Made by a program: the position numbers and the translations under genes | From: an uncultured Planctomycetota bacterium | GTDB lineage: Bacteria > Planctomycetota > Planctomycetia > Isosphaerales > Isosphaeraceae | Length of the DNA: 64,000 nt | Reading direction: 5' to 3' | NCBI GenBank assembly: GCA_963823665.1 | Contig: CAWGMQ010000008.1 | Location: forward strand, 2,048,001 to 2,112,000 | Notes under the pieces: model-generated | Database searches by the model: none | Told to the model about the DNA's origin: nothing | Seen by the model: the letters and a program-made list of their open reading frames with translations, nothing else | Shown: in pieces, positions 43,700 through 63,635 of the stretch | How the letters are laid out: each line of letters begins with the position of its first letter | Numbering within the stretch: position 1 is the first letter of the stretch

Positions 43700-43780
43700 T
43701 ACCCCCAGCCGCTCCGACACCGCCGCCGGATCATCCCAGATCAGCTCCTTGGTCGAGACTTCGCAGCGGTTGAATGCTAC
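43700..43780 (-). pseudogene. 5' remnant of an Rpn-like gene
   Basis: AFNRCEVSTKELIWDDPAA matches EFNRFDVSAKELVWDDPAA at the start of the 58151 gene. Confidence 0.7.
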
Positions 43781-43839
43781 AGAGAGGTCCCCGAATTCGT
43801 TCGCCCCGAGCTTCGAGAAGATCTCTCTGCAGCGTCGCT

Positions 43840-44733
43840 TCACTTCACCCTGAGCTGAAACCGCTGCTCGCCGATCTGGAATTGCGCCAGCGACTCCACG
43901 GTAATCTGCGGCATCCGCAGCCACAGTCCATTCGGCGTCTTGTGATGCTCGGCGTGCCAGTTTCCTCGAGGCCCGCGGTAAAGCCGCACGTGCCGCAGCT
44001 CGCAGAACGGGTCGTCAGCCCGACAGATCGGGCACGTTGGGTCGGCGCCGATCCAGTACTCATTCTTGACAAGGAGGATCCGGTTTCCGATGTCCTTTCC
44101 GATTAGCTCGGTCACAGCCGGCGGCCGGGTCGGGCTTGCGCCCTCGTCCAGCCCCTGAGTTTGGCCGAAACCCTGCTCGTTTCCGGCATGGTCGATCGTC
44201 GGCCCCGCGTCGACGACTGGTCCCTCGAACCGGTAGCGCCCGTTGCCGACCAGAAACTCCGCCTTCTCGGCGAGAACCGTCCTGCTCACGCGGACGAACA
44301 TCCCGTGCGTGCTCTGGAGGTCCGTGACAACCCAGCGATGCAGCCCGCCGACGACCTGGTGCGTGATCTCAACATGCCGCGCCGACATCCGCCCGTCGAG
44401 CGGAATACAGAAATCCCCTTCGGTTCGTCCGATGATGAATCGATGATCGCGGATGCGGATGATTTCACCATCGGTCTTGCCATCGTCAAACACGGTCAAG
44501 ACGGCAACCGGCGGCCGCGCCGTCGGGTGGAACGGCACGGCCGAACGCACCGCGCCGGGCGATGGCGGCGCCGAGACCGGGGCAGAGGATTCGACCGCGA
44601 CCGGCGGGCCGGGCTGCCGTCCCTTGTGACCCGACAGCAACGCATGTCGGATCTCATCGTCAGTTTCGATCAAGGTGCCGGACCGTTCGACCTGAGGGTT
44701 CGGTTGACCGGGTTCAGTTGGCTGGGACATCAT
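43840..44733 (-). CDS. Double-FHA domain protein
   Basis: IGRTEG..MSARH..DLQSTHG; close paralogue of 52345-53235. Confidence 0.88.
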   Translation of the reverse strand: MMSQPTEPGQPNPQVERSGTLIETDDEIRHALLSGHKGRQPGPPVAVESSAPVSAPPSPGAVRSAVPFHPTARPPVAVLTVFDDGKTDGEIIRIRDHRFIIGRTEGDFCIPLDGRMSARHVEITHQVVGGLHRWVVTDLQSTHGMFVRVSRTVLAEKAEFLVGNGRYRFEGPVVDAGPTIDHAGNEQGFGQTQGLDEGASPTRPPAVTELIGKDIGNRILLVKNEYWIGADPTCPICRADDPFCELRHVRLYRGPRGNWHAEHHKTPNGLWLRMPQITVESLAQFQIGEQRFQLRVK

Positions 44734-44804
44734 TCACCTCCTTTCCGCGGGCAATCCACTCCAGCGACAGAATCGTTACACACGCGCCTGCATTCCACCT
44801 GTGT

Positions 44805-47800
44805 TCAGCGGCCAAACTGACCCAGGACCACGCGGAAGCCCAAGTTGCCCCACCGCCAGTCCGGAGCGAGCGCCTCGCCGAACGCCGATCGGCAGTCGCG
44901 GGGCCCGCCGTACCAGCTCCCGCCGCGGAATATCCGGTTCGAACCCCTCGCCGGGCCGGTCGGGTCGTCCGCCGGCGACTGATTGTAATAGCCCGCGCCC
45001 TGCCAATCCCAGCACCATTCCCAGACGTTCCCATGCATGTCGTACAGCCCGAAACCATTCGGCTTTTTCAGGCCCGTCGGGTGCGTTCGCGAATCGGAGT
45101 TACGTTTGAACCACGCATAGTCGTCCAGCTCTCCCGCATCATTACCGAACGAGAAGCGCATCGGAGTGGACGCGATCGCCCGGCAGGCGTATTCCCACTC
45201 CGCCTCCGTCGGCAATCGATACCCCGGCCCGTTCCAGTCCGGAACGCGGATCTCTTTCCCACCGATCTCATAGAACGGCTTCTTACGCTCCTTCTCGCTG
45301 AGCTTGTTGCAGAACTGAGTCGCCTCCAGCCAGGTGACGTTTTCCACCGGATGCCGGTCGGTCGAGTGCCCCGCGACCAAGTCCTTGCCCGAACCATTTG
45401 CTGAGAACGTGCTCGGATTGTTCCCCATCACAGCCTCATATTGCGCCTGGGTGACCTCGCAAACGCCCAGGTAGAACGGTTTGCTGATCCGCACTTTGTG
45501 CTGCAGCTTCTCGGGGGCACTGGAATCCTTGTCGCCGTCGGACGGCCCCATCAAGAATTCACCGGCCGGAATCAGCTTGAGCGTCACGCCGATCGAGTTC
45601 GTGATTGACTCCTGAGTTGAGGGAGTCTTGACCGCGCGGACTGCGTCGGGGCGGCCAGACTGACCCAGAGCCAGACGGAAGCCCACGTCGTAAGTCCGGT
45701 ATTCTGGAACGTGCCAGTTGCGGCTCGCTGACCGGTGTTGGCCGGGATCGCTGAGCCAGCCCCCGCCGCGGAACATTCGGCACTCGCCGTCCCCACCACG
45801 CTCGTGGACCCGGGTGATCGAGGCCCCCGCGGGGCCGGTTGGGTTGTCCGCGGCTGACTGAGTGTAATAGCCCTCGCCGTACCAATCCCAGCACCACTCC
45901 CAGACGTTCCCATGCAGGTCATACAGCCCAAATCCATTCGGCTTTTTCTGGCTCACCTGGTGCGTTCGCAAATCGGAGTTACCCTTGAACCACCCATATT
46001 CGCCCAGCTCCGGCGCATCGTCACCGAATGAGTAGCGCGTCGGGGTCGGCGCGTTCGCCCTGCAGGCGTATTCCCACTCCGCCTCCGTCGGCAAACGATA
46101 GCCCGAGCCCGTTCCAGTCCGGAATCCGGATATCTTTCCCATCGATCTCATAGAACGGCTTCTTACCCTCCTTCTCGCTGAGCTTGTTGCAGAATTTGAC
46201 CGCGTCGAACCAGGAAACTTGCTCAACCGGATACTGGTCGGTCGACTGGCCTGCGACCTCATCCTTGCCTCGACCATTTGCGGAGAAGTAGCTCGGATTG
46301 TTACCCATCACGGCTTTGTACTGCGCCTGGGTCACTTCGTACACGCCCAGGTAGATACGACTGCTGATCCGCACCTTGTGCTGCGGCTTCTCGCTGGGAT
46401 CGGCATCCTTGTCGTCCGTCGGGCGAGCCCATCAGGAATTCGCCGCCAGGAATCAGCTTTAGCGTCATCCCGATCGAGTTTTTGATCGATTGCTGAGATA
46501 GAGCGAGTCTTGACCGCGGGGCCTGCGTCGGAGCGGACGTCTTTCTTCGCCGTCCGGGTTGAATCGGCACCGTCATCTTTCGGAAGTTCGTGGGGCAGTT
46601 TGGTGGAGGCTACAAACCGCACCGTGAACTTCTCTCTACCTGCCGCCTGCACGGTCACCTCGTCGCCGGATATCTCAAGCCCATCCTTCTTGACCATGAT
46701 CTTGTGCTTGCCGGCGGTGACCGTGACCACGGCGGGCTTGCCGCCGCCCGGCCAGGTGATGGCAACCTCCTCGCCGTCGACCAAGACCTCGGCATCCTTC
46801 GGGAGATTCACCAGCTCGATCATCCCGTTCGCGGTCTTCACCCTGATAACCAGCCCCCAAGCGACGACGAAACCGAGCAGCAACAAACCGGCCAAGGCCC
46901 ACCAGGCGCGGGCCCCGAGCCGATTCAGCTTCTCAACCGCAGTCGACCAGAGCGCGAGGTTCCTTCGACTCGCCGGCGGAGTAGCCACCGGAAGCGGTGT
47001 ATCCAGAACCTTGTCGAACAGCGGATCCGTCTCGCGCGAGCTCGACCAGACCCTCCAGGATCGAACCCGGTTGCATGGGCGCCGGCGTCCTCCGCACGGC
47101 CGGCCGCGGTGGCGCCGAGGTCGTGGCGGGACTCGAATGTTTCGCCTCGGGTTGACCCGTCTGAGAGATCTCGGGATCCACGCCTTTCAGCGCCACGCTC
47201 CCCTTCTTGAAAAAAGGCGTCAGCGCCTGGGCCACCTCGCCGGGTGTCTGAAATCGCCGGCCCGGCTCCTTCGCCATCATCTTCGCCACCAACGCGGCCA
47301 GCTCGACCGGGACCTCGGGCCGGACAAGGTTCAGCGGCCCGGCGTCCATCGAGAAGTGGGCCTGGTACACATCCCATAGATGCTCGCCGCGGAATGGCGG
47401 TCCGCCGGTCAGGAGATAGTAAAACGTACAGCCCAGGCTGTAGATATCGGCGCGGATGTCCGCCGACTGGGCGTTGCGAATCTGTTCCGGAGCGATGTAG
47501 TCCGGCGTGCCCAGCATCTGGCCCTCGCGGGTCAGGCCGCCGTCGACCTCGCCCTCGCTGCTCACCTTGGCCAGTCCGAAGTCGAGAACCTTGACGACCG
47601 CTTTCTTCCCCTCAGGCGCGAGGATGAGGTTCGCCGGCTTGATGTCGCGGTGCACCATCCCTCGCTCGTGGGCGTGCTGCAACCCGAGCGCCGCCTGCTG
47701 AATAAAGTAGCAGGCGTGAGCCACCGGCAGCGGCCCCTTGGTCTTGACCATCTTTTGCAGGTCGAGACCCTCGACGTACTCCATCGCCAGCACAAGACCC

Positions 47801-48324
47801 TCGCCGAGCCGCAGGGCCGAATAGGCACCGACGATGTTGGTGTGATGCAGCTTGGCGGCCGACTGCACCTCGCGCAGGAACCGGTCGCGAACACCGGGCC
47901 GCTCGACCAGGTTCGCGCCGACAACCTTGAGTACCTCCAGACGCCCCATGAGCTTGTTGCGGGCAAGGTACACCACCCCCATCCCGCCTCGCCCTAATTC
48001 GCGCAGGATCTCGTAGTCGGCAAGGTCCGCCAGCCCCGGAGGCAGCGTGTCCGCCGGCGGCGGTGCAGTGGAGACGGCCGCCCCAACGCCGGCCGGAGAT
48101 CCGCCGAATTGCAAATTCTCCGTGGCCGAGATCCCCGGCTCTCCCTGCGCACCGCGAAGCCGCCCCAGAAAGCTGTCGGACGACATCTCGGCAACGCGGC
48201 GCTGACACTCCGAGCACGAGCTCAAGTGCGTGTTCACCGATTCTGCCGAGGCCTCATCAAGCTTGCCCAGACTGTAGGCCTGCAACGTCGGATCATTCGG
48301 GTGGACGGCGGCTGTGGCGCCCAT
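44805..48324 (-). CDS. Receptor Ser/Thr kinase 1: zinc finger - kinase - TM - PEGA-like - two FGE-sulfatase domains (several frameshifts)
   Basis: HLSSCSEC, LGRGGMGVVY, HRDIKPAN, DFG, GTPDYIAPE; TM WWALAGLLLLGFVVAW; two RLPTEAEWEYACR/NGFGLYDxHGNVWEWC/GFR sets; ORFs 46933-48369, 46332-46988, 46301-46576, 46021-46374, 44805-46277. Confidence 0.88.
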
Positions 48325-48566
48325 GGCAGGATCTCCGGAGGCGGAACAACTTCGACTTCGATCGCTCAATCACTAATCAAGAAAGGCCGCATCAGCGCGA
48401 AACCTGCCGCGAAAACAACAGAATATCCCGAGAAACGTTCGAGCTCTACCCGTAACTGCTTGAAATCTCACGACTTGGCCTGACGATGAATTGTGCGCCA
48501 GCGCGACGAACCAGAATACGCTCGTCGCCGCCCGACGCTCGGCAGCCCTCGGCAGGCCCTGGCGGC
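48325..48566 (-). promoter_or_regulatory. Conserved kinase 5' leader, with copies at about 51460-51615 and 57062-57300
   Basis: Shared CACTAATCAAGAAAGGCCGCA..CAGCGCGAAACCTGCCGCGAAAACAA..CTCTACCCGTAACTG..TGAAAT..CACGA..TTGGC upstream of three kinase genes. Confidence 0.75.
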
Positions 48567-48658: not shown

Positions 48659-48691
48659 GCTGCGCCGCCTTCCCGGGACAGGAAACTCGCC

Positions 48692-49216
48692 TCAGGACCT
48701 GGCCGCTTTACGACCCACGGCACGCGGTGATCGTTGGGCGCGGGTCTCGTGTTCCGCGCCCAATGTCGACTTTCGCTCCGCGAAAGTTCCTCCTCGTTGG
48801 GCGCGGGTCTCCCGACCCCGCCCGGAGTTCGACCGAAGGTCTCCCTGGTTCGCCGGCTTCTCGTTGCCAGGAGTCTCGGTCGGACACGACATCCCGACCA
48901 ATTCGAGCAGCCCGTTCGGATTCTGCCGGTAAACCTGGATCAGCCGAAGCACCGCCTGCGACGGTTTCCGGTTGCCTTGTTCCCAGCTCTGAACGGTCTT
49001 GGTCGACACGTTGAGCAACAGTGCGAAAACTGCCTGCGACATTCCACTCTCGTGGCGGAGCCTGATTAGCTCCGACGCATCGACCTCCGGCGGCCGGTCA
49101 GGCAGTTCGAGGGTCGTGGTCTTCAATGTAATCTCGCCCTTTGCATGGCGGATCGCTTCCTCGAGGCCCTTCCGAATCTGTGCTGCAACCGGAAGTCGCT
49201 GACGTTCATCTTTCAC
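48692..49216 (-). CDS. XRE-type HTH protein (HigA/YiaG-like antitoxin) reading through a REP pair
   Basis: IRKGLEEAI, MSQAVFALLLNVSTKTVQSWEQGNRKPS. The start is uncertain. Confidence 0.75.
   Translation of the reverse strand: MKDERQRLPVAAQIRKGLEEAIRHAKGEITLKTTTLELPDRPPEVDASELIRLRHESGMSQAVFALLLNVSTKTVQSWEQGNRKPSQAVLRLIQVYRQNPNGLLELVGMSCPTETPGNEKPANQGDLRSNSGRGRETRAQRGGTFAERKSTLGAEHETRAQRSPRAVGRKAARS
48733..48845 (+). repeat. REP pair (equivalent copy at 53311-53422)
   Basis: GTTGGGCGCGGGTCTC twice, the second followed by CCGACCCCGCC..GACCGAAGGTCTCCC. Confidence 0.8.
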
Positions 49217-49320
49217 GTTCGCTTTGATCCGCTTCGGTGGGCACAACCACTTGTTCAGTTTCTGAACGACCCTGTGAACCTTAACCGACCGAATCTTTTC
49301 GACGATTGGCCCTAGCCACA

Positions 49321-51459
49321 TCAGAACGGCGCCGGCCCCTTCAACTGCAACAATTTGACCTCGATCTTGCGAATCTGAAGGGTCCCGCCCTTCGCAAGCC
49401 GAATCGCAATCTGACCCTGTTTCAGCATCGATCGCGTGTCCTCAAACGCGGACACCTCGCGGCCATTGACGCGCATCCGGAAAACGTTTCCCTCCGCGAT
49501 GATCTCTACCTTTTGCCACTTACCGTTGGGAAGACCGGGGAGCCCCGGCGCGGTGATTTCTCGGAGACCGTCCATGGTAGTCTGACTCCTGTCAGTCGCC
49601 CCCCCTCCGAACTTGAGTCTGTACTCGCCCAACAAGAGTCTTTCGCCGTCGAATGTCGATCCCCCCGCACAAAACCTGTAATACTTCACGGAACCCAGGG
49701 AATGGAACGCTCGAACAAGAAATATGTTATCCAAGCTACCGCTCACACGAACCTCCATGCGCAGGTGGAAGTTTTCGTAATCGAACCGTTCTGTGGCAAT
49801 CGTGGAAGCGTCAGTCGAACCCGAGCCTTGGATCGAACCATCATCCGCCACCGTCCAGTCGTTTTCGTCGCCAACGGGAAAAGTCCAGCCTGAGAGATCC
49901 CTCCCGTTGAACAATTTAACGAAACCAGGCTCCCCCGTCTCATGGTCCGCCTCGAATGACTTGCCATCAGGCGCGCTGAACGTCGCCACGTCCTTGTCTG
50001 TTTTGATGTAAACAACGACGCCCGCTGCGATGAAACTGAACAGCGACGCTGCGGCAGCAACCGCCGGCCACCGCCACCGCGGCCGAAAACGATTTGCCTG
50101 CACGGTGGTAGGCAAGGGCTCCGTCTCGTTGAACTCGACCAGACCATCCCACATGGGATCCCGGTGCGCCGCTTGCGTGGGGATCGCTTTCGCCGGCGCA
50201 GAAGCAGGAACGGGAGCAACATCCGCACTCGTCGTGCGGTGTGCCGACGCGCAATCTATGCCAGCCTGCGCCGGCCTTGCTTTCGACCGACCTGCCTGCG
50301 AGATATTGTGGCCAGATCCGCTCGATGCCGGGCTCCCCTTCCTGAAGAACGGCCCCAGCGCCTCCGCGACCTCCTTCGGCTCCTGAAACCGTCGCCCCAC
50401 GTCCTTCGCCAGCATCTTCGCAACCAGCGCCGCCAACTCCGCCGGAACCTCCGGCCGAACAAAATTCAGCGGATCCGCATCCCGCGACATGTGCGCCTGG
50501 TACATGTCATACAACGAGCTGGCCTGAACCGGCGGTCGACCCGTGAGGAGATGATAGAGCGTGCCGCCCAAGCAATAGATATCAGCCCGGATGTCGGCGG
50601 TCGTCGCATCAACAATCTGCTCCGGAGCAATGTAGTCAGGCGTGCCGAGCGCTTGCCCTTCCGACGTCAGCCGCAAGTCAACTTTCTCTTCACGCGTCAC
50701 GCGGGCCAGACCGAAGTCGAGGATCTTGACGGTCGACTTGTTCTTCTTATACGAGAGCATCAAGTTGCCGGGCTTCATATCCCGGTGAACCAAACCCTCC
50801 TCGTGAGCATGCTGAAGGCCCAAGGCCGCTTGGTGCGCATAGAAGCACGCATGGGCGACCGGCAACGCTCCCTTCGCCTTTACCATTCGCGATAGATCCA
50901 ATCCCTCGACGTATTCCATCGCAAGGACGAAGCTCTCACCAATCCGCGTCGCGTGATAAGCCGTCACAATGTTGGGATGGCGAAGCTTCGCGACAGCCCG
51001 GATCTCTCGCAGGAACCGCTCAAGCACACCGGGCCGTTCCATGATGTGCCGGCCCATCACCTTGAGCACCTCGTCGCGACCCATCAGCCGGTTATGAGCC
51101 AGGTACACCACCCCCATGCCGCCGCGGCCAAGCTCCCGCTTGATCTCATAGTCAGCGTGGTCAGCCAGACCAGGCGGCAACGTCTCAGCCGGCGGCGGCA
51201 CGACCGCGACAGCCGGCCGTTGGCCCAGCAGCGATGCACCAAACTGCGACTTGTCCGTGGCCGACATCCCCGGGCCAACGCGCGCCTCGCGAAGCCGTCC
51301 CAGAAAACTGTCGGACGACATCTCCGCAACCCGGCACTGACACTCCGAGCACGAGCTCAGATGCTGATTCACCGATTCAGCCGAAGCGTCATCGAGCTTG
51401 CCCAGACTGTAGGCCGGCAAAGTCGGATCATTCGGGTGGACGGCGTCTGTGGCGCCCAT
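49321..51459 (-). CDS. Receptor Ser/Thr kinase 2: zinc finger - kinase - TM - DUF1080 (3-keto-disaccharide hydrolase-like)
   Basis: HLSSCSEC, HRDMKPGN, DFG, APE; TM WPAVAAAASLFSFIAAGVVVY; LFNGRDLSGW, YENFHLRME, WQKVEIIAEG, GQIAI. Confidence 0.9.
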   Translation of the reverse strand: MGATDAVHPNDPTLPAYSLGKLDDASAESVNQHLSSCSECQCRVAEMSSDSFLGRLREARVGPGMSATDKSQFGASLLGQRPAVAVVPPPAETLPPGLADHADYEIKRELGRGGMGVVYLAHNRLMGRDEVLKVMGRHIMERPGVLERFLREIRAVAKLRHPNIVTAYHATRIGESFVLAMEYVEGLDLSRMVKAKGALPVAHACFYAHQAALGLQHAHEEGLVHRDMKPGNLMLSYKKNKSTVKILDFGLARVTREEKVDLRLTSEGQALGTPDYIAPEQIVDATTADIRADIYCLGGTLYHLLTGRPPVQASSLYDMYQAHMSRDADPLNFVRPEVPAELAALVAKMLAKDVGRRFQEPKEVAEALGPFFRKGSPASSGSGHNISQAGRSKARPAQAGIDCASAHRTTSADVAPVPASAPAKAIPTQAAHRDPMWDGLVEFNETEPLPTTVQANRFRPRWRWPAVAAAASLFSFIAAGVVVYIKTDKDVATFSAPDGKSFEADHETGEPGFVKLFNGRDLSGWTFPVGDENDWTVADDGSIQGSGSTDASTIATERFDYENFHLRMEVRVSGSLDNIFLVRAFHSLGSVKYYRFCAGGSTFDGERLLLGEYRLKFGGGATDRSQTTMDGLREITAPGLPGLPNGKWQKVEIIAEGNVFRMRVNGREVSAFEDTRSMLKQGQIAIRLAKGGTLQIRKIEVKLLQLKGPAPF

Positions 51460-51715
51460 GGCAGGATCTCCGGAGGTTTAACAACTTCGACGTCGATCGC
51501 TCAATCACTAATCAAGAAAGGCCGCACCAGCGCGAAACCTGCCGCGAAAACAAAAGAATATCTCGAGAATCGTCCAAGCTCTACCCGTAACTGTTTGAAA
51601 TTTCACGAGTTGGCCCAATGGACGATTTTGCGCCCAGGCGATGGAAGCGACTACATTCCACTCGATCTGGTGCATCCCAATCACCAGCGGCTTCGGGGGC
51701 CCGTCGGCGATCCAT

Positions 51716-52284
51716 TCACGAACCGTTAAGCAGGTCGTTCCAGTCGAGGACATCAGGGTCGAGGACTCGCTCACCGATGGCCTCGAGACGGTCGATGTCC
51801 TTGATCGCCTCGAGCGCGCTGACGGTTGTTGCGTCAGGCTCTCCGAATCGCTTGGTCCCCTGACGAATCAAGAACCGTCGCGCCTCCTCCAACCGTCCAT
51901 CATTGATGATTTTTCGATAGGTCGTCGACTCGTGCATCGTCTGAACCCCCCAAGAACTGAAAATGTAAGCTCGTCGGGAAAGCGCAGCCCCATCAACGAA
52001 TACGTCGCGGTCCAGAGCGTGGCGGACCTGGATCCCGGCTCGCCATTGATGCGTTCCGCCATTCGCCGCACAAGCCTTGGCAAGTCACCCTCCGGCACGT
52101 CGGTCAATGCTGCCAGCGGCACCAGCCCGACCCCGGCCGTCAGGAAAAATGGGGGCAAGTTCGTGATATCCGAATCGATCACCTCAATCGGCCCAGCGGG
52201 CCCGATCCGCAGCCCCTCCAGCCACTCCGTGGGCCCATCCCAGATCAGCTCCTTGGTCGAGATGTCGAAGCGGTCGAATTCCAC
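51716..52284 (-). pseudogene. Internally deleted Rpn-like gene that keeps an intact 73-aa C-terminal ORF (51716-51937)
   Basis: EVIDSDIT joins via a short filler (NLPPF) to LTAGVGLVPLA, removing the ADK..NIEL nuclease core present in 57303-58151. Confidence 0.8.
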
Positions 52285-52344
52285 GATGTGATTTCCAGTT
52301 AATGCGCGCCGCCATCGTGATCCATAACGTCTTTGCCCCGCGGT

Positions 52345-53235
52345 TCATTTCACCTTGAGCTGAAACTGTTGCTCGCCGATCTGAAACCGGACTGGTGATT
52401 CCACGATAATCTGCGGCACTCGCAGCCATAGTCCGTTCGGCGTCTTGTGGTGCTCGGCATGCCAGCTTCCTCGCGGTCGGCGGTAAAGCCGAACGTGCCT
52501 CGGCTCGCAAAACGGATCATCCGCCCTGCAGATCGGACACGACGGGTCCGACCCAATCCAGTATTCACTCTTGACGAGGAGCATCCGGTTGCCGATCTCC
52601 GAGCCAACGAGCTCAGTGACGGCTGGCGAACGGACGGCACTGGCGCCGTCATCCCAGCCACGAGTCCCGCTGAACTCCGGTGTCCCGAGCGAGTTGTCGA
52701 TCGTTGGCCCGGCGTCGGCCACGGGCGCGTCGAACCAGTATCGTCCGTTCCCAACCAAGAACTCGGCCCTATCCGCCAGAATGGTCCGGGTGACGCGCAC
52801 AAACAGCCCATGCGTGCTCTGGAGATCAGTGATCACCCAGCGGTGCAGCCCCCCGACAACTTGGTGCGTGATCTCCACATGCCGCGCCGACATCCGCCCA
52901 TCGAGCGGTATGCAGAAATCCCCTTCGGTGCGCCCGATGATGAACCGATGGTCGCGAATGCGAATGATTTCACCATCGGTCTTGCCATCGTCAAACACCG
53001 TCAGCACAGCAACCGGCGGCCGCGCCGTGGGCCGAAACGGAACAGCAGAGCGCACCGAAGCCTGCGGACGCGTGGACGCCGGGGCAGGGGACTGACCACC
53101 CGCAGGTGGCGGCCCCGGCGGCTCGCCCTTGTGCTGCGACAACAGCACCTGGCGAATCTCCTCGTCGGTCTCGATCAAAGTGCCGGAGTGCTCGACCGGC
53201 GGATCCGGCTGCTCGGGCTTCGGTGGTTGGGGCAT
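52345..53235 (-). CDS. Double-FHA domain protein
   Basis: Same motifs as 43840-44733, with long identical stretches. Confidence 0.88.
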   Translation of the reverse strand: MPQPPKPEQPDPPVEHSGTLIETDEEIRQVLLSQHKGEPPGPPPAGGQSPAPASTRPQASVRSAVPFRPTARPPVAVLTVFDDGKTDGEIIRIRDHRFIIGRTEGDFCIPLDGRMSARHVEITHQVVGGLHRWVITDLQSTHGLFVRVTRTILADRAEFLVGNGRYWFDAPVADAGPTIDNSLGTPEFSGTRGWDDGASAVRSPAVTELVGSEIGNRMLLVKSEYWIGSDPSCPICRADDPFCEPRHVRLYRRPRGSWHAEHHKTPNGLWLRVPQIIVESPVRFQIGEQQFQLKVK

Positions 53236-53925: not shown

Positions 53926-56900
53926 TCAGTCCGGTAGCTCCTCAATCAGAATCTCCTGGAACTGAATCACCGTCTTGCCCAGGACGAGCAACGAAATCGC
54001 ACCCGAGCCATACCACCAAGACGCGTCCCGATAATCGGCGACCGTTTTTCCATTTATCGACGTCGTGACACGATCCCGGATTGCGGTGATCTCGGCAGTA
54101 TTCCAAGAATTCACCGGAACGGGAGTTGGCTCAGCTCGTGCATCCCAAGCGATATGGTGGAATCGCTGGTTTCTCATTTTCGTGATACTTCCGGCGGGTA
54201 TTTGCCACTGATCCGTTCTGGGCCACGAGTTTAGGTTAACCAGATAGCCGCTTCTGTTGTCGCCACTGCCGGAAAATCGGACTTCGATCAAACTATTGCC
54301 TCCTTGTTGATGCCGAAACTTTGTCCGCAACCGGTAATTTGTGAAGTTTCGACTATGCGTAACGAGGTTGCCCGCGCCCGCTTCGCCAGCACCACGACCT
54401 TCGAGCAACCCGTCCACGACTTTCCACTCGCTTCCATTGGTGAGAACGTCCTTCCAGCCATCGAGGTTCTTGCCGTTGAACAGGGCGGTAAACTCGCCGT
54501 TCCTCGACAGAACACGCGGCGATACCGAACCGCCAAGTTCTATTGCGCCGCCACCTGCATTCCTCGCGACGCGAAATCCCTGCTGGGGAACGTGAATACC
54601 CGGATCCTTATGGAAGTTTGGCCAGCTCCCTCGAAAAAGCGAGCTAAACAACATCCGGGTGTTCCACGTGTACGCACAACCGCGACTAACGCGGCCTATT
54701 CCCGTTACCGGACCGGTGGGATCCTTCACAGGCCCCCCGTCGTCTCGGTATTTGCCATACCAATCCCAGCACCACTCAAACACGTTCCCCGTCATGTCGT
54801 ATAATCCGTAGCGGTTCGGCTTCAACTCACCAACTGGGTGGGTCTGCTTACCGCTGTTCGTCCCAGTCCACGCGAATAGATCGACGCGCTCCCAGTCATC
54901 ACCGTGGGGATAAATCGTTTGGGTGCCGCCTCGGCATGCGTATTCCCACTCTGCCTCGGTCGGCAGGCGGTAACCATCGCCACCGATGATAGACACCTCG
55001 TTACGGTCGATTCTGTAGAAAGGCGGGCGGCCCTCCTTTTCGCTCAGTCGGTTGCAGAACTCGACCGCTTCGTACCACGACACGGAATCAACCGGAAGAT
55101 TTCGCTGACCGCGAAACTTGCTGGGTTCGCTGCCCAAGACCAGTTGGTACTCTTCCTGGGTAACCTCGTATGCACCAATATAGAATGGCTTGGTGATCTG
55201 TACCGCGTGAGCCGGACGAGCACGCTCAGTCTCAGAGAGGTGCATTTTGGACACCTCGGGATTGTCCGGGGCACCCATCAAGAACCCACCGGCCGGGATG
55301 TGTTTCAGCTTCATGCCAATCGAGTTCGTCAAAGTCAGTGGCAGCGCGGCCGGCGCCTGCCCATGTCCTGCGTCCCGCAAAGGTTCCAGCCGGACTACGA
55401 TCTCTTCCGACCCTTCCACGGCAACCGTCACAGATTCTCCGTACGTTTTAAACCCTTCCTTCTTCACCTCGATCCTGCGCTCACCTGGAAGAGCCCGAAT
55501 CACGATAGGTTTGCCACCGCCAGGCCATGAGACCGTAACCTTGTTTCCGTCGACATAGACGTCCGCACCGTCTGGCACATTTTCTAGTACGATCACTCCA
55601 TCGGGCGTTCCCACGCGAATCACGCTGGCAACCCACCAACCGGCGAAGCCCAAGACGACTGCCGCGATGCACACGGCCGGCCAGAGCCACATCGGCCGAC
55701 GATTCGGTTCGGCGCGAGCGGCTTTGAGTATGGTAGCTGCGTCAGCCCCCACGTTAGCGAGGCTGTCCCACCGCGCGTCGGCCTGCGCCCGCTCGGCCGG
55801 CTTTCCTAGGTCTACTCCCGTGGGTTCGCTCGCGGCGGTCGTTTTCGACGTAGGGCCGGCACGTCGAGCTCCATCGCCAACTGCGCGCTGTTCGATCAAC
55901 GAAACCTCGCCAACCGCGGTGTGCGCGTTTCGAAACACCCTTCTTGAAAAACGGCAGAAGCGCGTCCGCCACTTCCTTCGGCGTCTGAAACCGCCGCCCC
56001 GGATCCTTCGCCAGCATCTTCGCAACCAGCGCCGCCAACTCCGCCGGCACCTCGGGCCGAACAAAATTCAGCGGATCCGCATCCCGCGACATGTGCGCCT
56101 GGTACATGTCATACAGCGAGCTGGCCTGGAACGGTGGTCGACCTGTGAGCAGATGGTACAGGGTGGCGCCGAAGCTATAGATATCAGCCCGGATGTCAGC
56201 GGTCGTCGCATCAACAATCTGCTCCGGAGCAATGTAGTCAGGCGTGCCCAGCGCCTGCCCCTCCGAGGTCAGCCGCAAATCAACTTTCTCTTCACGCGTC
56301 ACGCGGGCCAGGCCGAAATCGAGGATCTTGACGGTCGACTTGTTCTTCTTATACGAGAGCATCAAGTTGCCGGGCTTTATATCCCGGTGAACCAAACCCT
56401 CCTCGTGCGCATGCTGAATGCCCAAGGCCGCCTGGTGTGCGAAGAAGCACGCATGGGCGACAGGCAACGCTCCCTTTGCCTTCACCATTCGCGACAGATC
56501 CAATCCTTCAACGTACTCCATCGCAAGGACGAAGCTCTCACCAATGCGCGTCGCGTGATAAGCCGTCACAATGTTGGGATGGCGAAGCTTCGCGACAGCC
56601 CGGATCTCTCGCAGGAACCGCTCAAGCACACCGGGCCGTTCCATGATGTGCCGGCCCATCACCTTGAGCACCTCGTCACGACCCATCAGCCGGTTATGAG
56701 CCAGGTACACCACCCCCATGCCGCCGCGGCCAAGCTCCCGCTTGATCTCATAGTCAGCGTGGTCAGCCAGTCCAGGCGGCAACGTCTCAGCCGGCGGCGG
56801 CGCGACCGCGACAGCCGGCCGTTGGCCCAGCAGCGATGCACCAAACTGCGACTTGTCGGTGGCCGACATCTCCGGACCAACGCGCGCCTCGCGAAGCCGT

Positions 56901-57061
56901 CCCAGAAAACTGTCGGACGACATCTCCGCAACCCGGCACTGACACTCCGAGCACGAGCTCAAATGCTGGTTCACCGATCCAGCCGAAGCGTCATCGAGCT
57001 TGCCCAGACTGTAGGCCTGCAAAGTCGGATCATTCGGGTGGACGGCGTCTGTGGCGCCCAT
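53926..57061 (-). CDS. Receptor Ser/Thr kinase 3: zinc finger - kinase - TM - PEGA-like - FGE-sulfatase - DUF1080 (frameshift near 55940)
   Basis: Kinase half nearly identical to kinase 2; TM WLWPAVCIAAVVLGFAGWWVA; RLPTEAEWEYACRGG, GLYDMTGNVFEWC; LFNGKNLDGW; ORFs 55754-57061 and 53926-56064. Confidence 0.9.
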
Positions 57062-57302
57062 GGCAGGATCTCCGGAGTGGTAACAACTTCAACGTCGATC
57101 GCTAAATCACTAATCAAGAAAGGCCGCACCAGCGCGAAACCTGCCGCGAAAACAAAAGAATATCCCGAAAAACATTCGAGCTCTACCCGTAACTGCTTGA
57201 AATTTCACGACTTGGCTTGACAATTAACTGTGCGCCAACGAGCCGAACCACCACACACTCGTCGCCGTCGAAAGCTCGGTAGCGCTGCCCCGCGCCCGCG
57301 AC

Positions 57303-58151
57303 TCACGGTCCCTGGAGCAGATCCTCCCAGCCATGGAGGTCAGGATCGACGATTCGCTCACCGATGGCCTCGAGACGGTCAATGTCTCTGATCGCCTCGA
57401 GTGCGCTCACGGTCGTGGCATCAGGCTCTCGAAATCGCTTGGTCCCTTGACGAATCAGGAACCGCCGTGCCTCCTCCAATCGTCCATCGTTGATGATTTT
57501 TCGATAGGTCGTCGACTCGTGCATCGTCTGAACCCCCTCAAGAAGTGAAAATGTAAGCTCGTCGGGAAAGCGCAGCCCCATCAACAAATACGTCGCGGTC
57601 CAGAGCCTGGCGGCCCTCGGTCGCGGCTCGCCATTGATGCGTGCCGCCATTCGCTGCACAAGCCCCGGCAAGTCCGCTTCCCCCACGTCGGTCAATGGGG
57701 CCAAGGGCACCAGCCCGACTCCAGCCGTCAGATAGGCCTCGGGATCTTCCTTCCACAGCCGCAGCACACGATAATTGTACCGATTCGTAAGCCAGCCGTC
57801 TGGAAGCTCTCGCTCGTATCCACCCGTCAAACTCGGCGAGTTGGCCTCCTTGCACAGCAACACCAACACGGTGAGCACAGGCAGATCATGGCGATAGTCA
57901 AGGGCGACCTGGCGGAACCAGAGCGTTCTTTGCAGATTCGTCTCGTGATAGGAATGGAGCTCGATGTTGACCAGATAGGGCTCGGACCCTCCGATCCTGA
58001 GCACCTTGTCCGCCGCAGCCGTCAGCGCGGTGATGTCGGAGTCGATCACCTCGACGAGCGCGGCAGAGCCAATGCCGAACCGTGCAAGCCAGGCCGCGGG
58101 GTCGTCCCACACCAGTTCTTTGGCCGAGACGTCGAATCGGTTGAACTCCAT
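57303..58151 (-). CDS. Rpn/transposase_31-like PD-(D/E)xK protein
   Basis: Paralogue of 41168-42088: ADKVL..NIELHS, RYNYRVLRLW, MHESTTY, KRF. Confidence 0.75.
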   Translation of the reverse strand: MEFNRFDVSAKELVWDDPAAWLARFGIGSAALVEVIDSDITALTAAADKVLRIGGSEPYLVNIELHSYHETNLQRTLWFRQVALDYRHDLPVLTVLVLLCKEANSPSLTGGYERELPDGWLTNRYNYRVLRLWKEDPEAYLTAGVGLVPLAPLTDVGEADLPGLVQRMAARINGEPRPRAARLWTATYLLMGLRFPDELTFSLLEGVQTMHESTTYRKIINDGRLEEARRFLIRQGTKRFREPDATTVSALEAIRDIDRLEAIGERIVDPDLHGWEDLLQGP

Positions 58152-58165
58152 GAAGCGACTCCAGT

Positions 58166-60502
58166 CTACCCTTTTCTAGCCTTGCCCCGACCGAGCACAA
58201 CAATCGTCGCCGCGGCACCCACAGCCGCGTGCGCGAGCACGATCATCCAAGCAGGAAACCACTCCCCGCCCTCTCGTCCGAGCGATTTCAAATATCCGTC
58301 CGGCAATAAGCGCTGGATCGCCTCCTGCCCCCAGTAGACCGTCACAAACGCCTTCGCGATCCAGAGCGCAATGCCGCTCAGTGGAGCGCTTACCCCGGCC
58401 AGGATGATCTGTGGGATCACGGCGACCGGGACCAGCGCGATCGCCACCTCCTCGGATCGAGCCACGGCCGAGATGAGCAAGCCGACCGTCGTCCCGACCA
58501 CCGCGAGCGCCGCAAGCGTGGCCAACTGAAGTAGCACGTTACCCTCCGGCCCACACCACATCCTCACAATCGTGAACAGCAGCGTCGCCTGCACAATTCC
58601 GATCACGGCAAGCACGAAGAATTTGGATGCGAAGTAACCCCCGACGCGCAGGTTGAAGTCGCGCTCACGCAAGTAGATCACCCGCTCCTTCACCAGTTCC
58701 TTCGCCGCCGTGTTGCACCCAAACCAGAGACACGACACGGTCAGCAGCAACAGCAAATTGACCGATCGCAGCGCACGTTCATGCAATTGGGACACATCGC
58801 TGAGATTCCCGTAAACCAATCCCAGCAAGAGCGCCACCAGGACGCTCTGCCCCAGCATCACCCCGAGCGCTTGCCGGTCGCCTCGCCAGATCGACACATA
58901 CCGCCGCGTCAGAACCATCGCCTGCCGCAAGCTGCTCGCGCCGCGGCCGCCCGGGCGAACAAGCGGCGTCGTGCCGTCGCGCTCACTCAGCGTCTCGGAC
59001 GGCAGTCGATCGATGACGTACTGTTTGAAAAGAGGGTTCGCTCGAAACCGATTGTGCCAATCCTCGGGTGTTTTTTGGGCGAGCTGCCGGTACACATCGC
59101 CAAGCCGCGAGATCTGGAAATACGCCTTCGCCTCATCCGGCGTGCCGACGAACGCCAGCCGCCCGCCCTCCGTGAGGATGACCACGAGGTGGCACGTCGC
59201 TTCGACATTGGCCAGGCTGTGCGTGATGCAGACAACGGTCTTTCCCCCCTCGGCGACCTGCCGGAACAACTCCATCACTTCCCTGTCCGTCTGTTCGTCA
59301 AGCCCTGAAGTCACCTCGTCCAGGAACAACAGGCTCGGGCGCGACACCAGTTCGTTCGCCAAGCTCGCACGCTTCACTTGGCCCCCGCTCAGGTGGCGGA
59401 TCAGCATTTTCCTCCGGCTGGAGAGCCCGACGACATCCAGAATATCGGAGACGCTCGACTCGACCTCGTCGCGCGACAGATCCTCAGGCAGCCGCAGCTC
59501 GGCCGTGTAGCGCAGCGCCTGCCCAACCGCGAGCGAGTCATGCAGAACGTCCTTCTGCGGCACGACGGCGATGTCTTCCTTGAGGGCCTCAAAGTGTGTG
59601 TACAAGTCCTGGCCGTTGAGTGTCAACATCCCGGCATCGGGCGGGTTTCGACCGCTCATGATGGTGAGCAGCGTCGACTTCCCCGACCCGCTCGGGCCCA
59701 GCACGCAAACGAATTCCTTGGGGCGGATCACCAGGCTGATCTGATCGAGCAGCTTCAGCGGCCGGCCGGTGTTCCTGTCTTGAACGACGCGACTCACACC
59801 GCGCGCAGCAAGCTCGACGTTATTCGACCGCGACCGGCTGACCAGCCTCGACCCGTCGAATCGAAGTGAGAACGGCCCGATATCGATGTTGTCGCCGGGA
59901 TTGAGCAAGGTTGGGCCGGTGAGCCGGCGGCCGTTGACAAACGTTCCGTTCGGGCTTCCCAGGTCGGCCAGAGCAACCCGCTGCCCATCCACGGCCAATC
60001 GGGCATGTGCCCGAGAGACGTGCGGGTGGTCGAGATGAAACTGGACGGTCGTGGCATCGCGGCCGATGACACCTCCCTTTCCCAGCTCGAACTGCTGAGC
60101 CCGGGCCGTGCCGCGCAGCAAGGCGATATGCCGCGAATCGGCGAGGACGGTCGCATCGAATTGCCGGGCCGGCGGCGTGCTGGTTCGATCCGGCTCGATC
60201 GAGAGGACCACGATACTGGGGCCAGTAAAGCCCAGGCGAACCCGATCGCCGGCCTTGATCGGCGATGACGTATCGAGTGGGTTGCCGTTCAAGAGAGTCT
60301 TGTTGCTCTGGCTCAAATGGACCAGAACGAACCCCGTCGCCGTTGGTTCGATCCGGGCATGAAAACCGGAGACTTTCGGAAATGCGATCGCATCGATAGC
60401 TACCTCGCACCCGGCGTCGCGGCCCAGGCGGATGTGCGAGCCCGTGGTCTCGACGATTTGTGTCCGCCCATCAGGCTGATCCACCTGCAGCCGAGCTTGC
60501 AT
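58166..60502 (-). CDS. FHA-FHA-ATPase-membrane ABC transporter (Rv1747-like architecture)
   Basis: Two FHA domains (LGRD..VSGFH; IGRD..VSRAH..DLGSPNGT), Walker A GPSGSGKST, LSGGQ, LFLDEVTSGLD, ABC-2 TM region. Confidence 0.92.
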   Translation of the reverse strand: MQARLQVDQPDGRTQIVETTGSHIRLGRDAGCEVAIDAIAFPKVSGFHARIEPTATGFVLVHLSQSNKTLLNGNPLDTSSPIKAGDRVRLGFTGPSIVVLSIEPDRTSTPPARQFDATVLADSRHIALLRGTARAQQFELGKGGVIGRDATTVQFHLDHPHVSRAHARLAVDGQRVALADLGSPNGTFVNGRRLTGPTLLNPGDNIDIGPFSLRFDGSRLVSRSRSNNVELAARGVSRVVQDRNTGRPLKLLDQISLVIRPKEFVCVLGPSGSGKSTLLTIMSGRNPPDAGMLTLNGQDLYTHFEALKEDIAVVPQKDVLHDSLAVGQALRYTAELRLPEDLSRDEVESSVSDILDVVGLSSRRKMLIRHLSGGQVKRASLANELVSRPSLLFLDEVTSGLDEQTDREVMELFRQVAEGGKTVVCITHSLANVEATCHLVVILTEGGRLAFVGTPDEAKAYFQISRLGDVYRQLAQKTPEDWHNRFRANPLFKQYVIDRLPSETLSERDGTTPLVRPGGRGASSLRQAMVLTRRYVSIWRGDRQALGVMLGQSVLVALLLGLVYGNLSDVSQLHERALRSVNLLLLLTVSCLWFGCNTAAKELVKERVIYLRERDFNLRVGGYFASKFFVLAVIGIVQATLLFTIVRMWCGPEGNVLLQLATLAALAVVGTTVGLLISAVARSEEVAIALVPVAVIPQIILAGVSAPLSGIALWIAKAFVTVYWGQEAIQRLLPDGYLKSLGREGGEWFPAWMIVLAHAAVGAAATIVVLGRGKARKG

Positions 60503-60764
60503 GGAATGCTTCCCATAAACCTACGCAGCCGACGCGACGCCCGCTGACACTGGCTGCCCTACGGTTGAACCCGGAATTTGACCCTTCCGCCGTGTGGGAG
60601 CCACTTAGTCGCCGGTCAACGGCATCGTCTGAGTACCAACGGGCTGTGCACAAAAACCGAATCTGCACGACGAGGCGAGCCGCACCGACTACCGTTTCCG
60701 CTTGCAGCAACCTGGCAAATGGAGTTTCGCGCATCCGCGGCAATGCGGTTTCCGGAGGCCTTTT

Positions 60765-63635
60765 CTACTCGCCAAGCTCTTCTATCCTGATATCTTTGAA
60801 CTGAATACGTGAGTCCCCGCGGGCGGCAATCGCAATCCCTCCAGACCCGTACGATCCAACGGCGTCGGTGTAATCCGCCAACGTTTTACCGTTCATCGAA
60901 CTGATAATGTGACTCCTGAGCGCCACGATTTCCAAGGTGCGCCACTCGTTCACCGGAACACGGTCGGACTCGGCCCGCTTCTCCCAGGCAAGCCCAGTGC
61001 CATATGCGTAGTTACTCAATTTTGTAATGCTACCGGTCGGCGGTAAACCGCCGTCCGTGGTCGCCCCTGAGCCGATATAGACCATGTAGCCATTGGTGTT
61101 GTCGCCAACCGGCGAGCGACGCACCTCGATCCATCCCCATCCCTCCTCCGGGCAGCTAAACTGAACGCGTAAACGAAAATCCGCATAGGTTTGACGCTTG
61201 TAGATGAGTAACGCTGGTTTTCCGATACCGCCTCCTTTACCCTCGAGTATGCCTCCAGAGACTTTCCATTTGCTACCGTTCGTGAGCAATTCTTCCCACC
61301 CATTCTGAGTACCGTCAAATAACGGCACGAACTTGGACGCCGCCGCCTCTGTCACCAAACCCCCAGCCTCCGATTCGGTGTTCGAATTCCTTTGGACGTC
61401 CTCCGCCTGCGCCGGCCCGTTCAACTCGGCCTTATCCTTCTCCTCAACGCCCTTCAACTTCGTCTCAACTGCCTCTCGATTGCTGATGTTCAGCTCGCCT
61501 TCCTCGACGTAAAATGCCAAGTCGAGCTGCCGCAGCAATAGGCGCAGCGTCGTCTTAAGTGGAACGCCTTCAAGATCGAGCATGCGCACAGGTGATGCCT
61601 TCGTTTTGTCTGCCGCGCTGAGCCCGTCCGGATCTAGATAGATCTGGAGACCAAAGTCCTTCTTAACGGCTTTCGTGGCCTGCTGGATGAACTTGATCAC
61701 GTTCTCAAGCGGCGTTTCTTCTTGAAACGCCATGCCAATCGGCATCTCAAGGACTTGCAGCACCTCTTGAGTCTCCGGCGTCGCATCGACGGCCAGTGCA
61801 GGCGAGTCCTTGCGTTCTCGCTCCACCCCGGCTGCTGAGCTGATAAAGAGAACCCCATCCTTCACGCAGTAATCCAGGTTCAATTGGCCGAGAATGTTCC
61901 GAAGCGTTGTCTTCAACCGTAATCGATCGAACTTAACATTTCTAAAGGGCGACGCCATCGTCTTGTCGGCCTCAGAAAGTCCGACGGGGTCGACGTAGAT
62001 CGGTATGTCCGGTTGACCCGGCCCTTTGGTCGCCTCTTTGATGTATTTGAGCCCGTCCTCGAACGGCGTCTCATCTTCAAAATCCATGGAGATCACTTTT
62101 TCGAGCGCCTCGCGGATCGCCTTTGTTGTATCTAACTCGTAAGCATTAGAAGACGACTTTTTCTGCTGCGGCGACGACGCGGTCTTCACCCTCAAGATCC
62201 AGGCGACCGTCAACGCGACGACGAGCCCAAGTACCAACGCCCCCGCCACCACCGATCGCCACGTGCGCCGCTGTGTCTTACCTGGAAAGGCAAGCGCATC
62301 AGCCAAAACACGCGCGGTCTCACTCGCGTCGTCCGGGCCCTGCCGATCTCCCGTCACGGCAATCTGGCTCGACCGATCCGCAGACGGCTTGCTGATTGGT
62401 CCCGAATTCGGAATGGATTCGTTCGGTACGGAGATAAGCGATCGTCTGCGTTCGATCTCCCTGGTCTGGTCATTCTTGGACAGAGCCGAATCCAAACTCT
62501 TTACCACTGCAACCGCTTTCTTGAAAAAAGGCGTCAGCTCTCGCGCCACGTCGGCCGGCGTCTGAAACCGCCGCTCCGGCTCCTTTGCCATCATCTTCGC
62601 CACCAAGGCCGCCAGCTCGACTGGCACCTCCGGACGCGCCAGGTTGAGCGGCATCGCGTCCATCGAGTGATGCGCCTGAAGGATCTCATACAAACTACTC
62701 GCTGCGAACGGCGGCTTTCCCATCAGCAAGTAGTAAAACGTGCACCCCAGGCTGTAAATGTCCGCCCGGATGTCGGCTTCGCGCGCGTCCCTGATCTGCT
62801 CTGGTGCGATGTAGTCCGGCGTGCCCAGCATCTGGCCTTCATGAGTCAGTCCTCCGTCAACAGCGCCCTCGCTCTTGACTTTGGCCAGCCCGAAATCCAG
62901 TACCTTGATGATCGCCCGATTGGCCTGCCGGGCAAGCATCAGATTGCTCGGCTTGATGTCGCGATGGACCATTCCCAGCTCATGCGCATGTTGTAGCCCC
63001 AGGGACGCCTGGTGGATGTAATTGCAAGCATTCGCGACCGGCAACCCGCCCTTGGCCTTGACCAGCCTCGAAAGATCGAGCCCCTCGACATATTCCATCG
63101 CGAAGACAATGCTCTCGCCGACGCGGCTCGCGGAGTACGCGGTAACGATATTCGTGTGGTGCAGCCTCGCCGCATTGCGAATCTCTGCTGAAAACCGCTC
63201 GCTAACCCCGCGCCGGTTCATGAGGTGGCCACTGACGACCTTCAGAACCTCGAGCCGGCCCATCAACCGATTCTTCGCGAGATACACCGTCCCCATCCCC
63301 CCCTGGCCAAGCTCGCGAATCACCTCGTAGTCAGGGTGCTCCGCCAACCCCGGCGGAAGCGTCTCGGCGGCCGGCGGTGGCCCAGCGTCGTCCGCCCGGT
63401 TTTGGATCAGCGACGCGCCGAACTGAGACCTGTCCGTCGCCGACATGTCCGGCGATTCCGGTGCCTTGCGCAGCCGCCCAAGGAAGCTGTCCGGCGCCAC
63501 TTCGGCCACGCGACGCTGGCACTCCGGACACAGATCCAGGTGCTCATTGACCGATGCGGCCGAGGCATCGTCGAGCTTGCCCAGGCCGTACGATTGCAAG
63601 ATCTGGTCCGTGGGGTGGTTCACAAGATCGCTCAT
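60765..63635 (-). CDS. Receptor Ser/Thr kinase 4: zinc finger - kinase - TM - two STN/secretin-N-like repeats - DUF1080
   Basis: ATG at 63635 after AGGAGG; HLDLCPEC, HRDIKPSN, DFG, APE; TM VVAGALVLGLVVALTVAWIL; two repeats (ISMDFEDETPFED..LKTTLR; IGMAFQEETPLEN..LKTTLR); FVPLFDG..W..GGIAI. Confidence 0.9.
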   Translation of the reverse strand: MSDLVNHPTDQILQSYGLGKLDDASAASVNEHLDLCPECQRRVAEVAPDSFLGRLRKAPESPDMSATDRSQFGASLIQNRADDAGPPPAAETLPPGLAEHPDYEVIRELGQGGMGTVYLAKNRLMGRLEVLKVVSGHLMNRRGVSERFSAEIRNAARLHHTNIVTAYSASRVGESIVFAMEYVEGLDLSRLVKAKGGLPVANACNYIHQASLGLQHAHELGMVHRDIKPSNLMLARQANRAIIKVLDFGLAKVKSEGAVDGGLTHEGQMLGTPDYIAPEQIRDAREADIRADIYSLGCTFYYLLMGKPPFAASSLYEILQAHHSMDAMPLNLARPEVPVELAALVAKMMAKEPERRFQTPADVARELTPFFKKAVAVVKSLDSALSKNDQTREIERRRSLISVPNESIPNSGPISKPSADRSSQIAVTGDRQGPDDASETARVLADALAFPGKTQRRTWRSVVAGALVLGLVVALTVAWILRVKTASSPQQKKSSSNAYELDTTKAIREALEKVISMDFEDETPFEDGLKYIKEATKGPGQPDIPIYVDPVGLSEADKTMASPFRNVKFDRLRLKTTLRNILGQLNLDYCVKDGVLFISSAAGVERERKDSPALAVDATPETQEVLQVLEMPIGMAFQEETPLENVIKFIQQATKAVKKDFGLQIYLDPDGLSAADKTKASPVRMLDLEGVPLKTTLRLLLRQLDLAFYVEEGELNISNREAVETKLKGVEEKDKAELNGPAQAEDVQRNSNTESEAGGLVTEAAASKFVPLFDGTQNGWEELLTNGSKWKVSGGILEGKGGGIGKPALLIYKRQTYADFRLRVQFSCPEEGWGWIEVRRSPVGDNTNGYMVYIGSGATTDGGLPPTGSITKLSNYAYGTGLAWEKRAESDRVPVNEWRTLEIVALRSHIISSMNGKTLADYTDAVGSYGSGGIAIAARGDSRIQFKDIRIEELGE

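Follow-up and report, generated by a model that had tools for sequence, protein, structure and literature searches.

Can the receptor kinases of one bacterial genome be re-equipped with new sensors by exchanging parts among themselves, and if so, at which points of the genes and with what consequence for signalling? In the portions of the literature consulted, the origin of the hundreds of planctomycete kinase architectures has so far been described at the phylum level, while four neighbouring genes (K1 to K4) in an uncultured planctomycete raise the question at the scale of a single locus. They lie in a 64,000-nt stretch (G000:C8:2048001-2112000, contig CAWGMQ010000008.1 of assembly GCA_963823665.1; hereafter "the window") of a genome that measures 16.5 Mb and contains 628 kinase candidates. 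We propose, with a probability of roughly 0.6, that these genes form a tandem array of zinc-finger kinases behind one extracytoplasmic function (ECF) sigma factor, that their modules have been exchanged by recombination between paralogs, and that the receptors would act on the sigma factor and on FHA proteins.

A reading of the letters without database searches (the sequence-only reading) had described four co-directional genes that share a zinc finger and a Hanks kinase ending at PFF(K/R)K, and this was borne out for K1, K2, K3, and K4. Each lies on the minus strand and encodes an N-terminal zf-HC2 zinc finger (Pfam matches weak, E 2.5e-4 to 5.7e-3, below cut-off), the kinase, one Arg-flanked transmembrane segment (TM), and a variable tail, and the Gly loop, lysine, HRD, DFG, APE, and an activation-loop Thr are kept in 4/4 kinases. 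Pfam also supports the tail architectures proposed for K1 (PEGA weakly), K2, and K3, and the two repeats plus DUF1080 of K4, for which the label "STN-like" is only weakly supported. The kinase genes are as follows, with ZAS denoting a candidate zinc anti-sigma domain.

44805..48324, minus strand: K1; ZAS, kinase (PFF at 47217), TM, PEGA-like, two TvpA-like FGE domains; four breaks; mosaic gene
47217..47327, minus strand: terminal kinase block of K1, conserved, where ancestry switches (putative crossover zone)
44805..44930, minus strand: hypervariable C-terminal segment in the last FGE of K1
49321..51459, minus strand: K2; ZAS, kinase (PFF at 50352), TM, DUF1080; intact open reading frame
53926..57061, minus strand: K3; ZAS, kinase (PFF at 55954), frameshift at ~55940, TM, PEGA, FGE-like, DUF1080
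60765..63635, minus strand: K4; ZAS, kinase (PFF at 62531), TM, two STN-like repeats (weak), DUF1080; intact open reading frame

Different tails on a shared kinase half

The exchange of outer modules on the conserved intracellular half is well supported, and the pattern reads as mosaic ancestry, shown at the DNA level between sister copies and between congeners. K2 and K3, previously taken as almost identical, are indeed very close (94.6% across 1124 nt, a stretch that reaches 17 nt beyond the P of PFF) but differ at 61 positions, mostly synonymous. Their linkers had been called unrelated, and identity there falls from 0.94 in the kinase to 0.45, which is the level of shuffled sequences (0.47) and of 1138 distant pairs (0.50). 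Fast linker drift cannot account for this, because the orthologs K4 and gK4, at a like kinase identity (0.93), retain linkers that are 0.78 identical. Divergence at four-fold sites within the K2 clade (0.13-0.31) is similar to that between orthologs (0.19-0.23).

The syntenic locus of a congener (G001) carries five kinases, including three of the K2 clade with other tails, and its architectures differ from those of K1 to K4. K1 and its syntenic counterpart gK1 are 93.6% identical as far as 12 nt beyond the P of PFF, become unalignable through linker, TM, and middle region, where gK1 bears a DUF1080 at the position of an FGE in K1, and are again 90.3% identical in the last FGE. Elsewhere, the PEGA and first FGE of K1 are 83.7% identical to gC18b on a different contig, the DUF1080 of K3 shares 91.2% identity with the final module of gKb (which has DUF1080 and WD40 in the middle), and gK4 has a PEGA after the TM that is extra relative to K4. 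Within K1 itself, the ancestry signal changes over the final 110 nt of the kinase, where it favours the oC10/gC18b clade (informative sites 12:6 vs 23:194, p 2e-7, with the 110-nt cut chosen post hoc), and the start of the linker aligns to that clade as far as +80.

Across the 61 genes compared, kinase identity and module identity were uncorrelated (Spearman -0.13 for DUF1080 in 27 genes, 0.05 for FGE in 19, and 0.02 for PEGA in 37), and near-identical kinases bear different tails in the kinase tree (64 rows, including three outgroups). Neither congruent trees nor identical architectures at the syntenic G001 locus were seen, and the sensor-module exchange proposed by the sequence-only reading has held up in both respects. 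Other tail domains in relatives include WD40, LRR, TPR, C-type lectin, ricin-B, VHL, and 5'-nucleotidase C.

Two parts of that reading need narrowing. Divergence after PFF had been called complete, yet a W(E/D)xL(V/I)E motif survives in most linkers, together with an RRxW-P-TM layout. The modules shared crosswise are homologous, but at 43% identity for the PEGA of K1 and K3 (rank 145 of 666 pairs) and 46% for the DUF1080 of K3 and K4 (rank 33 of 703), they reflect old subfamily homology, not recent sharing.

Separately, oC10 (L037:9810-12690) and its G001 ortholog (L067:8191-11051) are 98% identical in their tails and 94% in their kinases, with flanking synteny at 82-89%, a likeness across the two species that suggests recent interspecies transfer.

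Candidate ligands, sigma factor, and FHA partners

The leader that the sequence-only reading had noticed before K2 and K3 is real, and in K1, K2, and K3 it matches the 3' end of the ECF sigma genes found intact before the paralogs oC8a and oC5, an identity which had been missed (best z 5.8, 8.7, and 7.5, respectively; at most 2.5 for K4). An intact ECF sigma gene ~2 kb outside the window heads the array and occupies the same place in G001; its only NCBIfam match above cut-off is the sigma70-ECF superfamily. Such a layout would arise if duplication of a sigma-kinase pair had started within the 3' end of the sigma gene, leaving later copies without a sigma of their own. The sigma gene directly adjoins the kinase at oC8a, at oC5, and in 12 of 34 close loci. 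A DUF4058 gene lies on the opposite strand between sigma and kinases (L038:5152-5976).

The remaining features, from the head of the array downward, are these.

L038:5990-6571 (window-equivalent 65990-66571): intact ECF sigma, outside the window
63884..64000, minus strand: 3' end of a gene for a 299-aa hypothetical protein with signal-peptide-like start
58166..60502, minus strand: FHA-FHA-ABC ATPase-ABC2 permease fusion
57303..58151, minus strand: Rpn-like/DUF4351 gene, passenger
57154..57220, minus strand: decayed ECF sigma 3' end, leader of K3 (z 7.5 vs shuffles)
53269..53793, minus strand: XRE/HigA-like helix-turn-helix (HTH) gene
52345..53235, minus strand: double-FHA protein, whose first FHA retains GR..SxxH..STxG
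51716..52284, minus strand: Rpn-like copy, broken
51552..51614, minus strand: decayed ECF sigma 3' end, leader of K2 (z 8.7 vs shuffles)
48692..49321, minus strand: second XRE/HigA-like HTH gene
48417..48483, minus strand: decayed ECF sigma 3' end, leader of K1 (z 5.8 vs shuffles)
43840..44733, minus strand: second double-FHA protein
41168..42088, minus strand: Rpn-like gene with four-residue repeats
40078..41070, minus strand: conserved hypothetical operon protein, without family
38947..40077, minus strand: M48 peptidase, in the operon in some relatives

On self-comparison, the order Rpn-like gene, kinase, HTH, double-FHA recurs as a unit. We surveyed 64 neighbourhoods (34 with a close kinase and 30 distant, with overlapping loci and flanks of up to 8 kb). 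Among the close loci, 16 have a sigma upstream, 15 a double-FHA gene, 17 at least two kinases, and 16 an Rpn-like gene; among the distant ones, 11 have an adjacent sigma, and neither the FHA clade nor the Rpn clade occurs (0 each). The genomes with the double-FHA clade (at least 54%) are exactly those with the kinase clade, 9 of 41.

The zinc finger points to the sigma factor as one output. Its His, His, Cys, and Cys ligands are invariant in 31/31 and follow the spacing of ZAS domains, H-x(23-26)-H-x3-C-x2-C. Of its six PDB matches, five are either anti-sigma domains or 3HUG, a membrane protein of RslA type; ChrR, DdvA, and RsiW are among the matches. By these signs the finger is of the anti-sigma (ZAS) type, and sigma binding and inhibition are predicted. 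The sigma factor retains the acidic region-2.2 motif (EADD), with Asp49 invariant in 24/24, and its N-terminal Thr4-Ser5 is invariant as well. We infer a dual output, namely control of the sigma factor through ZAS and perhaps through phosphorylation, together with docking of FHA proteins on phosphothreonine (pThr), and several receptors likely converge on one sigma. The FHA-FHA-ABC ATPase-ABC2 permease fusion is likely a kinase-regulated exporter.

As for the input, TM topology places the tails in the periplasm, as likewise stated for this kinase class in PMC11032199. The DUF1080 modules do not look like 3-keto-glycoside lyases, since the residues of the BT2 site (bioRxiv 2024.03.25.586180) are lost: with columns placed by motif through one relative, 0/6 (K2), 1/6 (K3), and 0/6 (K4) of N134, E164, Q166, Y190, Q273, and H275 remain, and E, Q, Q, and H are kept in 3 of 38 modules. 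A PDB sequence search with the DUF1080 of K4 gave no match. The FGE domain is nearest to TvpA (2Y3C, E 5e-47); a formylglycine-generating enzyme is rejected, as the cysteine pair after RGGS is absent in comparison with 6MUJ/2Q17 and in 16 tips. Between the last FGE domains of K1 and gK1 (one pair only), 11 amino-acid changes fall in 32 tip codons and 10 in the 160 upstream (p 6e-5), and the tip also holds five third-position changes. The K4 repeats match STN at Pfam E 0.044; the same region of a relative, 56% identical there, reaches E 1.9e-5, and a Foldseek search with a model of pLDDT 66 placed secretin N0/STN-type domains at the top, at E>=0.024. Overall, the tails would act as ligand receptors, DUF1080 probably for glycans.

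In the scheme that we favour by a small margin over even odds, non-catalytic lectin-like domains would bind glycans or proteins, the kinases would dimerise and autophosphorylate, the ZAS domain would release the sigma factor or the invariant Thr-Ser near its N-terminus would be phosphorylated, and pThr would recruit the double-FHA proteins and the FHA-ABC exporter.

Other neighbours are less readily placed. The Rpn-like genes gave no NCBIfam Rpn match and no PADLOC match (PADLOC returned HTH matches only), while Atlas neighbours are named Rpn/DUF2887; of the traits of Rpn toxin-antitoxin genes (a PD-(D/E)XK nuclease, C-terminal four-residue repeats, an internal start), the repeats are seen at 41168-42088. 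The XRE/HigA-like HTH genes have no RelE partner at this array, and RelE precedes HTH in two related loci; together, Rpn-like and HTH passengers hint at a possible defence-island setting. A dispersed, REP-like repeat of 50-75 nt (window 13500-13573, 33531-33669, 48788-48863, and 53365-53422) lies partly inside HTH 3' ends. For the conserved protein at 40078-41070, the family search was empty and Atlas neighbours are unnamed Planctomycetota clusters, although it recurs in 9/34 close loci; no family was found for a 425-aa hypothetical either. Double-FHA genes and an unrelated kinase (35335-37236) in window positions 33715-38854 converge on the array end. A second array in the same genome (L032/L033, G000:C8:1169-1186 kb) contains an ECF gene, kinase-FGE, Rpn-like gene, kinase-PEGA-DUF1080-TPR-DUF1080, double-FHA, hypothetical, and a third kinase, and the paralog oC5 (L036:7943-13300) has three FGE domains and a helical region, followed by double-FHA and hypothetical genes.

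Selection, drift, and the position of the seam

Several observations weigh against an exchanging array under one sigma. Ortholog tails outpace kinases without any swap (K4/gK4, 79% vs 93%), and gene pairs (about ten clades) and loci are not independent. The K1 switch has a weaker parallel in a 3' shift in all 10 triples tested, partly from conservation, with the ratio reversed in K1 alone. At L081, two tandem kinases are identical over a run of 633 nt that does not extend beyond the kinase (zinc finger 61-70%, linker 60-85%); read as head conversion, this speaks for exchange, but it could also be a polishing artefact. Neither K1 nor K3 is a single open reading frame in this assembly, and among the listed contig pieces of four soil runs, all short, none crosses a K1 or K3 break at high identity. 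The head sigma is three genes away from K4, not adjacent; 18/34 close loci have no ECF gene inside the flank; and because the genome has 31 related sigmas (E<=1e-15), the sigma partner is not certain.

A bolder form of the proposal is tentative and, on balance, unlikely. It would see a selected variable-receptor locus, in which hybrid anti-sigma/kinase receptors are continually re-armed with new lectin-type ectodomains by recombination at the kinase-end block and at module borders, such that binding tips diversify without a diversity-generating retroelement (DGR) and signals from several receptors meet at a single ECF sigma and an FHA-gated exporter. The locus would then be a bacterial counterpart of plant receptor-kinase clusters and might survey glycans of predators, competitors, or phage damage.

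Unlikely, too, is neutral birth-and-death, under which recombination in an unstable repeat cluster would shuffle modules incidentally, with K1 and K3 as genuine pseudogenes and without selection for a repertoire. The wealth of kinase candidates in the genome, the broken Rpn copy, and the partnerless HTH genes would suit it, as would the five breaks (K1 at ~47040, 46500, 46416, and 46107; K3 at ~55940) by which the four genes expected by the sequence-only reading form an array without all being single reading frames. However, the three alignable K1 breaks are single-base insertions, and the K1 segments have no in-frame stops. Assembly indels are likelier than decay because ordinary neighbours within 10 kb, CopA and CHAD, are likewise split here yet intact in G001, which itself has breaks in other genes. 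The K1/gK1 kinases diverge by 0.02 at positions 1+2 vs 0.19 at four-fold sites, the amino-acid changes of the last FGE cluster in its binding segment, and an isolate genome, Tundrisphaera TA3 (L084), holds an intact two-kinase operon with the same seam.

Where does the seam lie? The sequence-only reading had placed exchange at one fixed post-kinase junction (PFFKK) and the output solely in pThr/FHA, a combination that now seems improbable. PFF was located in 52/61 genes, giving 45 pairs with kinase DNA at least 85% identical. Alignment is lost within 25 nt of PFF in 22 of these pairs, as such a junction would predict, and within 61 nt in 27, but a further 14 break beyond (+81 to +120 in three, +311 to +510 in 11) and four keep the whole tail. 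Modules are also swapped internally, K1 switches upstream of PFF, and no 11-mer repeat connects junction and tail in K1 to K4. Site-specific recombination was rejected, there being no junction repeat and the 25 longest inverted repeats listed looking chance-like or being HTH 3' duplicates. A conversion hotspot at the kinase 3' end was rejected too: four-fold divergence there is 0.55-0.59 among 135 distant pairs, vs ~0.55 elsewhere, without synonymous homogenisation. Given scattered breaks, no junction repeat, and no 3' homogenisation, homologous recombination suffices without a dedicated site. PFFKK thus marks the end of kinase homology; further breaks fall inside linkers, downstream of the TM, or at the borders of modules. 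As to output, co-occurrence with double-FHA genes upholds FHA proteins as partners, whereas the ECF sigma and ZAS evidence, missed earlier, speaks against FHA as the sole one. In distant paralogs, codons 1-50, beside the conserved leader, have the lowest four-fold divergence (0.32-0.40 vs ~0.55), which may mark a cis element or a second exchange block.

In the paralog recombination that we prefer, crossovers and conversion tracts would use the kinase gene as a long homology block, often resolving in its last conserved stretch and leaving a visible seam at PFFKK, where homology stops; FGE, DUF1080, and PEGA modules would serve as additional homology blocks.

Programmed diversification, with an Rpn-like nuclease priming recombination or a DGR rewriting FGE tips, is very improbable. 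Rpn-like genes do concentrate here (9/12 of the genome's matches lie in or beside the two arrays, and close loci are enriched as above), and PMC10400941 leaves open Rpn as a starter of recombination; it presents Rpn as antiphage toxin-antitoxin passengers. Same-clade Rpn genes lie away from such kinases in 4/5 relative stretches checked, and many arrays have none. The TvpA-like FGE with its variable tip invites the DGR version, but no template repeat was found (genome 92% complete), 0 of 22 reverse transcriptase (RT) matches lie near the array, and the third-position tip changes are unlike AAY templates. Among the RT matches themselves (L143-L152; 22 in the genome), seven have the same score and a 634-aa frame, and several stand in inverted pairs with a second RT type.

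Repeat mis-assembly as the source of the K2/K3 likeness and the mosaic genes is hardly credible: although the assembly is indel-rich and none of the reads or contigs examined spans the array, the K2/K3 differences are mostly synonymous, and G001 has its three K2-clade kinases with other tails independently, in a pattern that recurs in many genomes including the isolate.

The array beside known receptor and sigma systems

In polymorphic toxins (Rhs, CdiA), a conserved N-terminal half precedes a variable C-terminal part, with recombination near the end of homology. The array is alike in all three points, and the parallel drawn by the sequence-only reading stands as logic but not as a system, since here the tips are sensors, each with its own kinase head. 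No toxic C-terminal domain or immunity gene was found in the array, whose neighbours are FHA, HTH, Rpn-like, and ABC genes, and no kinase-less module copy (orphan tip cassette) was found within the window.

TvpA, described in PMC5758913 as a DGR target with an FGE-type CLec fold, shares the fold subclass with the FGE domain here and varies in the same C-terminal segment; here, by contrast, there is no template repeat or linked RT that we found, and changes are not adenine-templated.

In PMC7826278, the ECF62 group comprises planctomycete sigmas whose gene is followed by that of a kinase with one TM, WD40, and a zinc finger at its N-terminus. The array fits an ECF62-type pair that would have expanded in Isosphaeraceae into sigma-(kinase)n-double-FHA operons: the nearest named relatives are Isosphaeraceae/Planctomycetota, giving the planctomycete host of such pairs, an ECF sigma is followed by a kinase with one TM and an N-terminal zinc finger, and oC10 and gC9 have WD40 tails. 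It differs in having 1-5 tandem kinases per sigma, decayed sigma ends, recent module exchange, and a double-FHA/hypothetical/M48/FHA-ABC tail, the sigma being set beside ECF62 by description, not by group hidden Markov models.

According to PMC11032199, Planctomycetota have single-pass serine/threonine kinases with periplasmic FGE, DUF1080, and WD40, and these architectures are non-monophyletic on the kinase tree. Topology and accessory domains are the same here, and table S8 of that paper may list these architectures; incongruence there is at phylum level, whereas exchange here is mapped on DNA in sister copies and congeners. A literature search, with most subscription papers outside its reach, turned up no account of tandem arrays with swaps traced at the DNA level.

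EcfP-PknT and EcfK-PknS (ECF43; PMC8999054) likewise pair a membrane kinase with an adjacent ECF sigma gene. ECF43 sigmas are without DAED, whereas the sigma here keeps EADD and the kinase has ZAS; a phosphorylation-activated sigma of the ECF43 kind was therefore rejected, the acidic motif being retained, not replaced by a Ser/Thr motif. The same source notes that DAED-like motifs persist in the groups other than ECF43, which may operate by a different mechanism, and calls the activation of kinase-linked ECF sigmas with the acidic motif unresolved. To this question the locus adds a candidate switch, i.e., ZAS fused to a kinase and an invariant Thr4-Ser5 on the sigma, and to the origin of architectures it adds mappable crossovers; both become testable in the cultured relative Tundrisphaera TA3, with its intact operon, and the natural modularity of heads and tails suggests a chassis for chimeric bacterial receptors.

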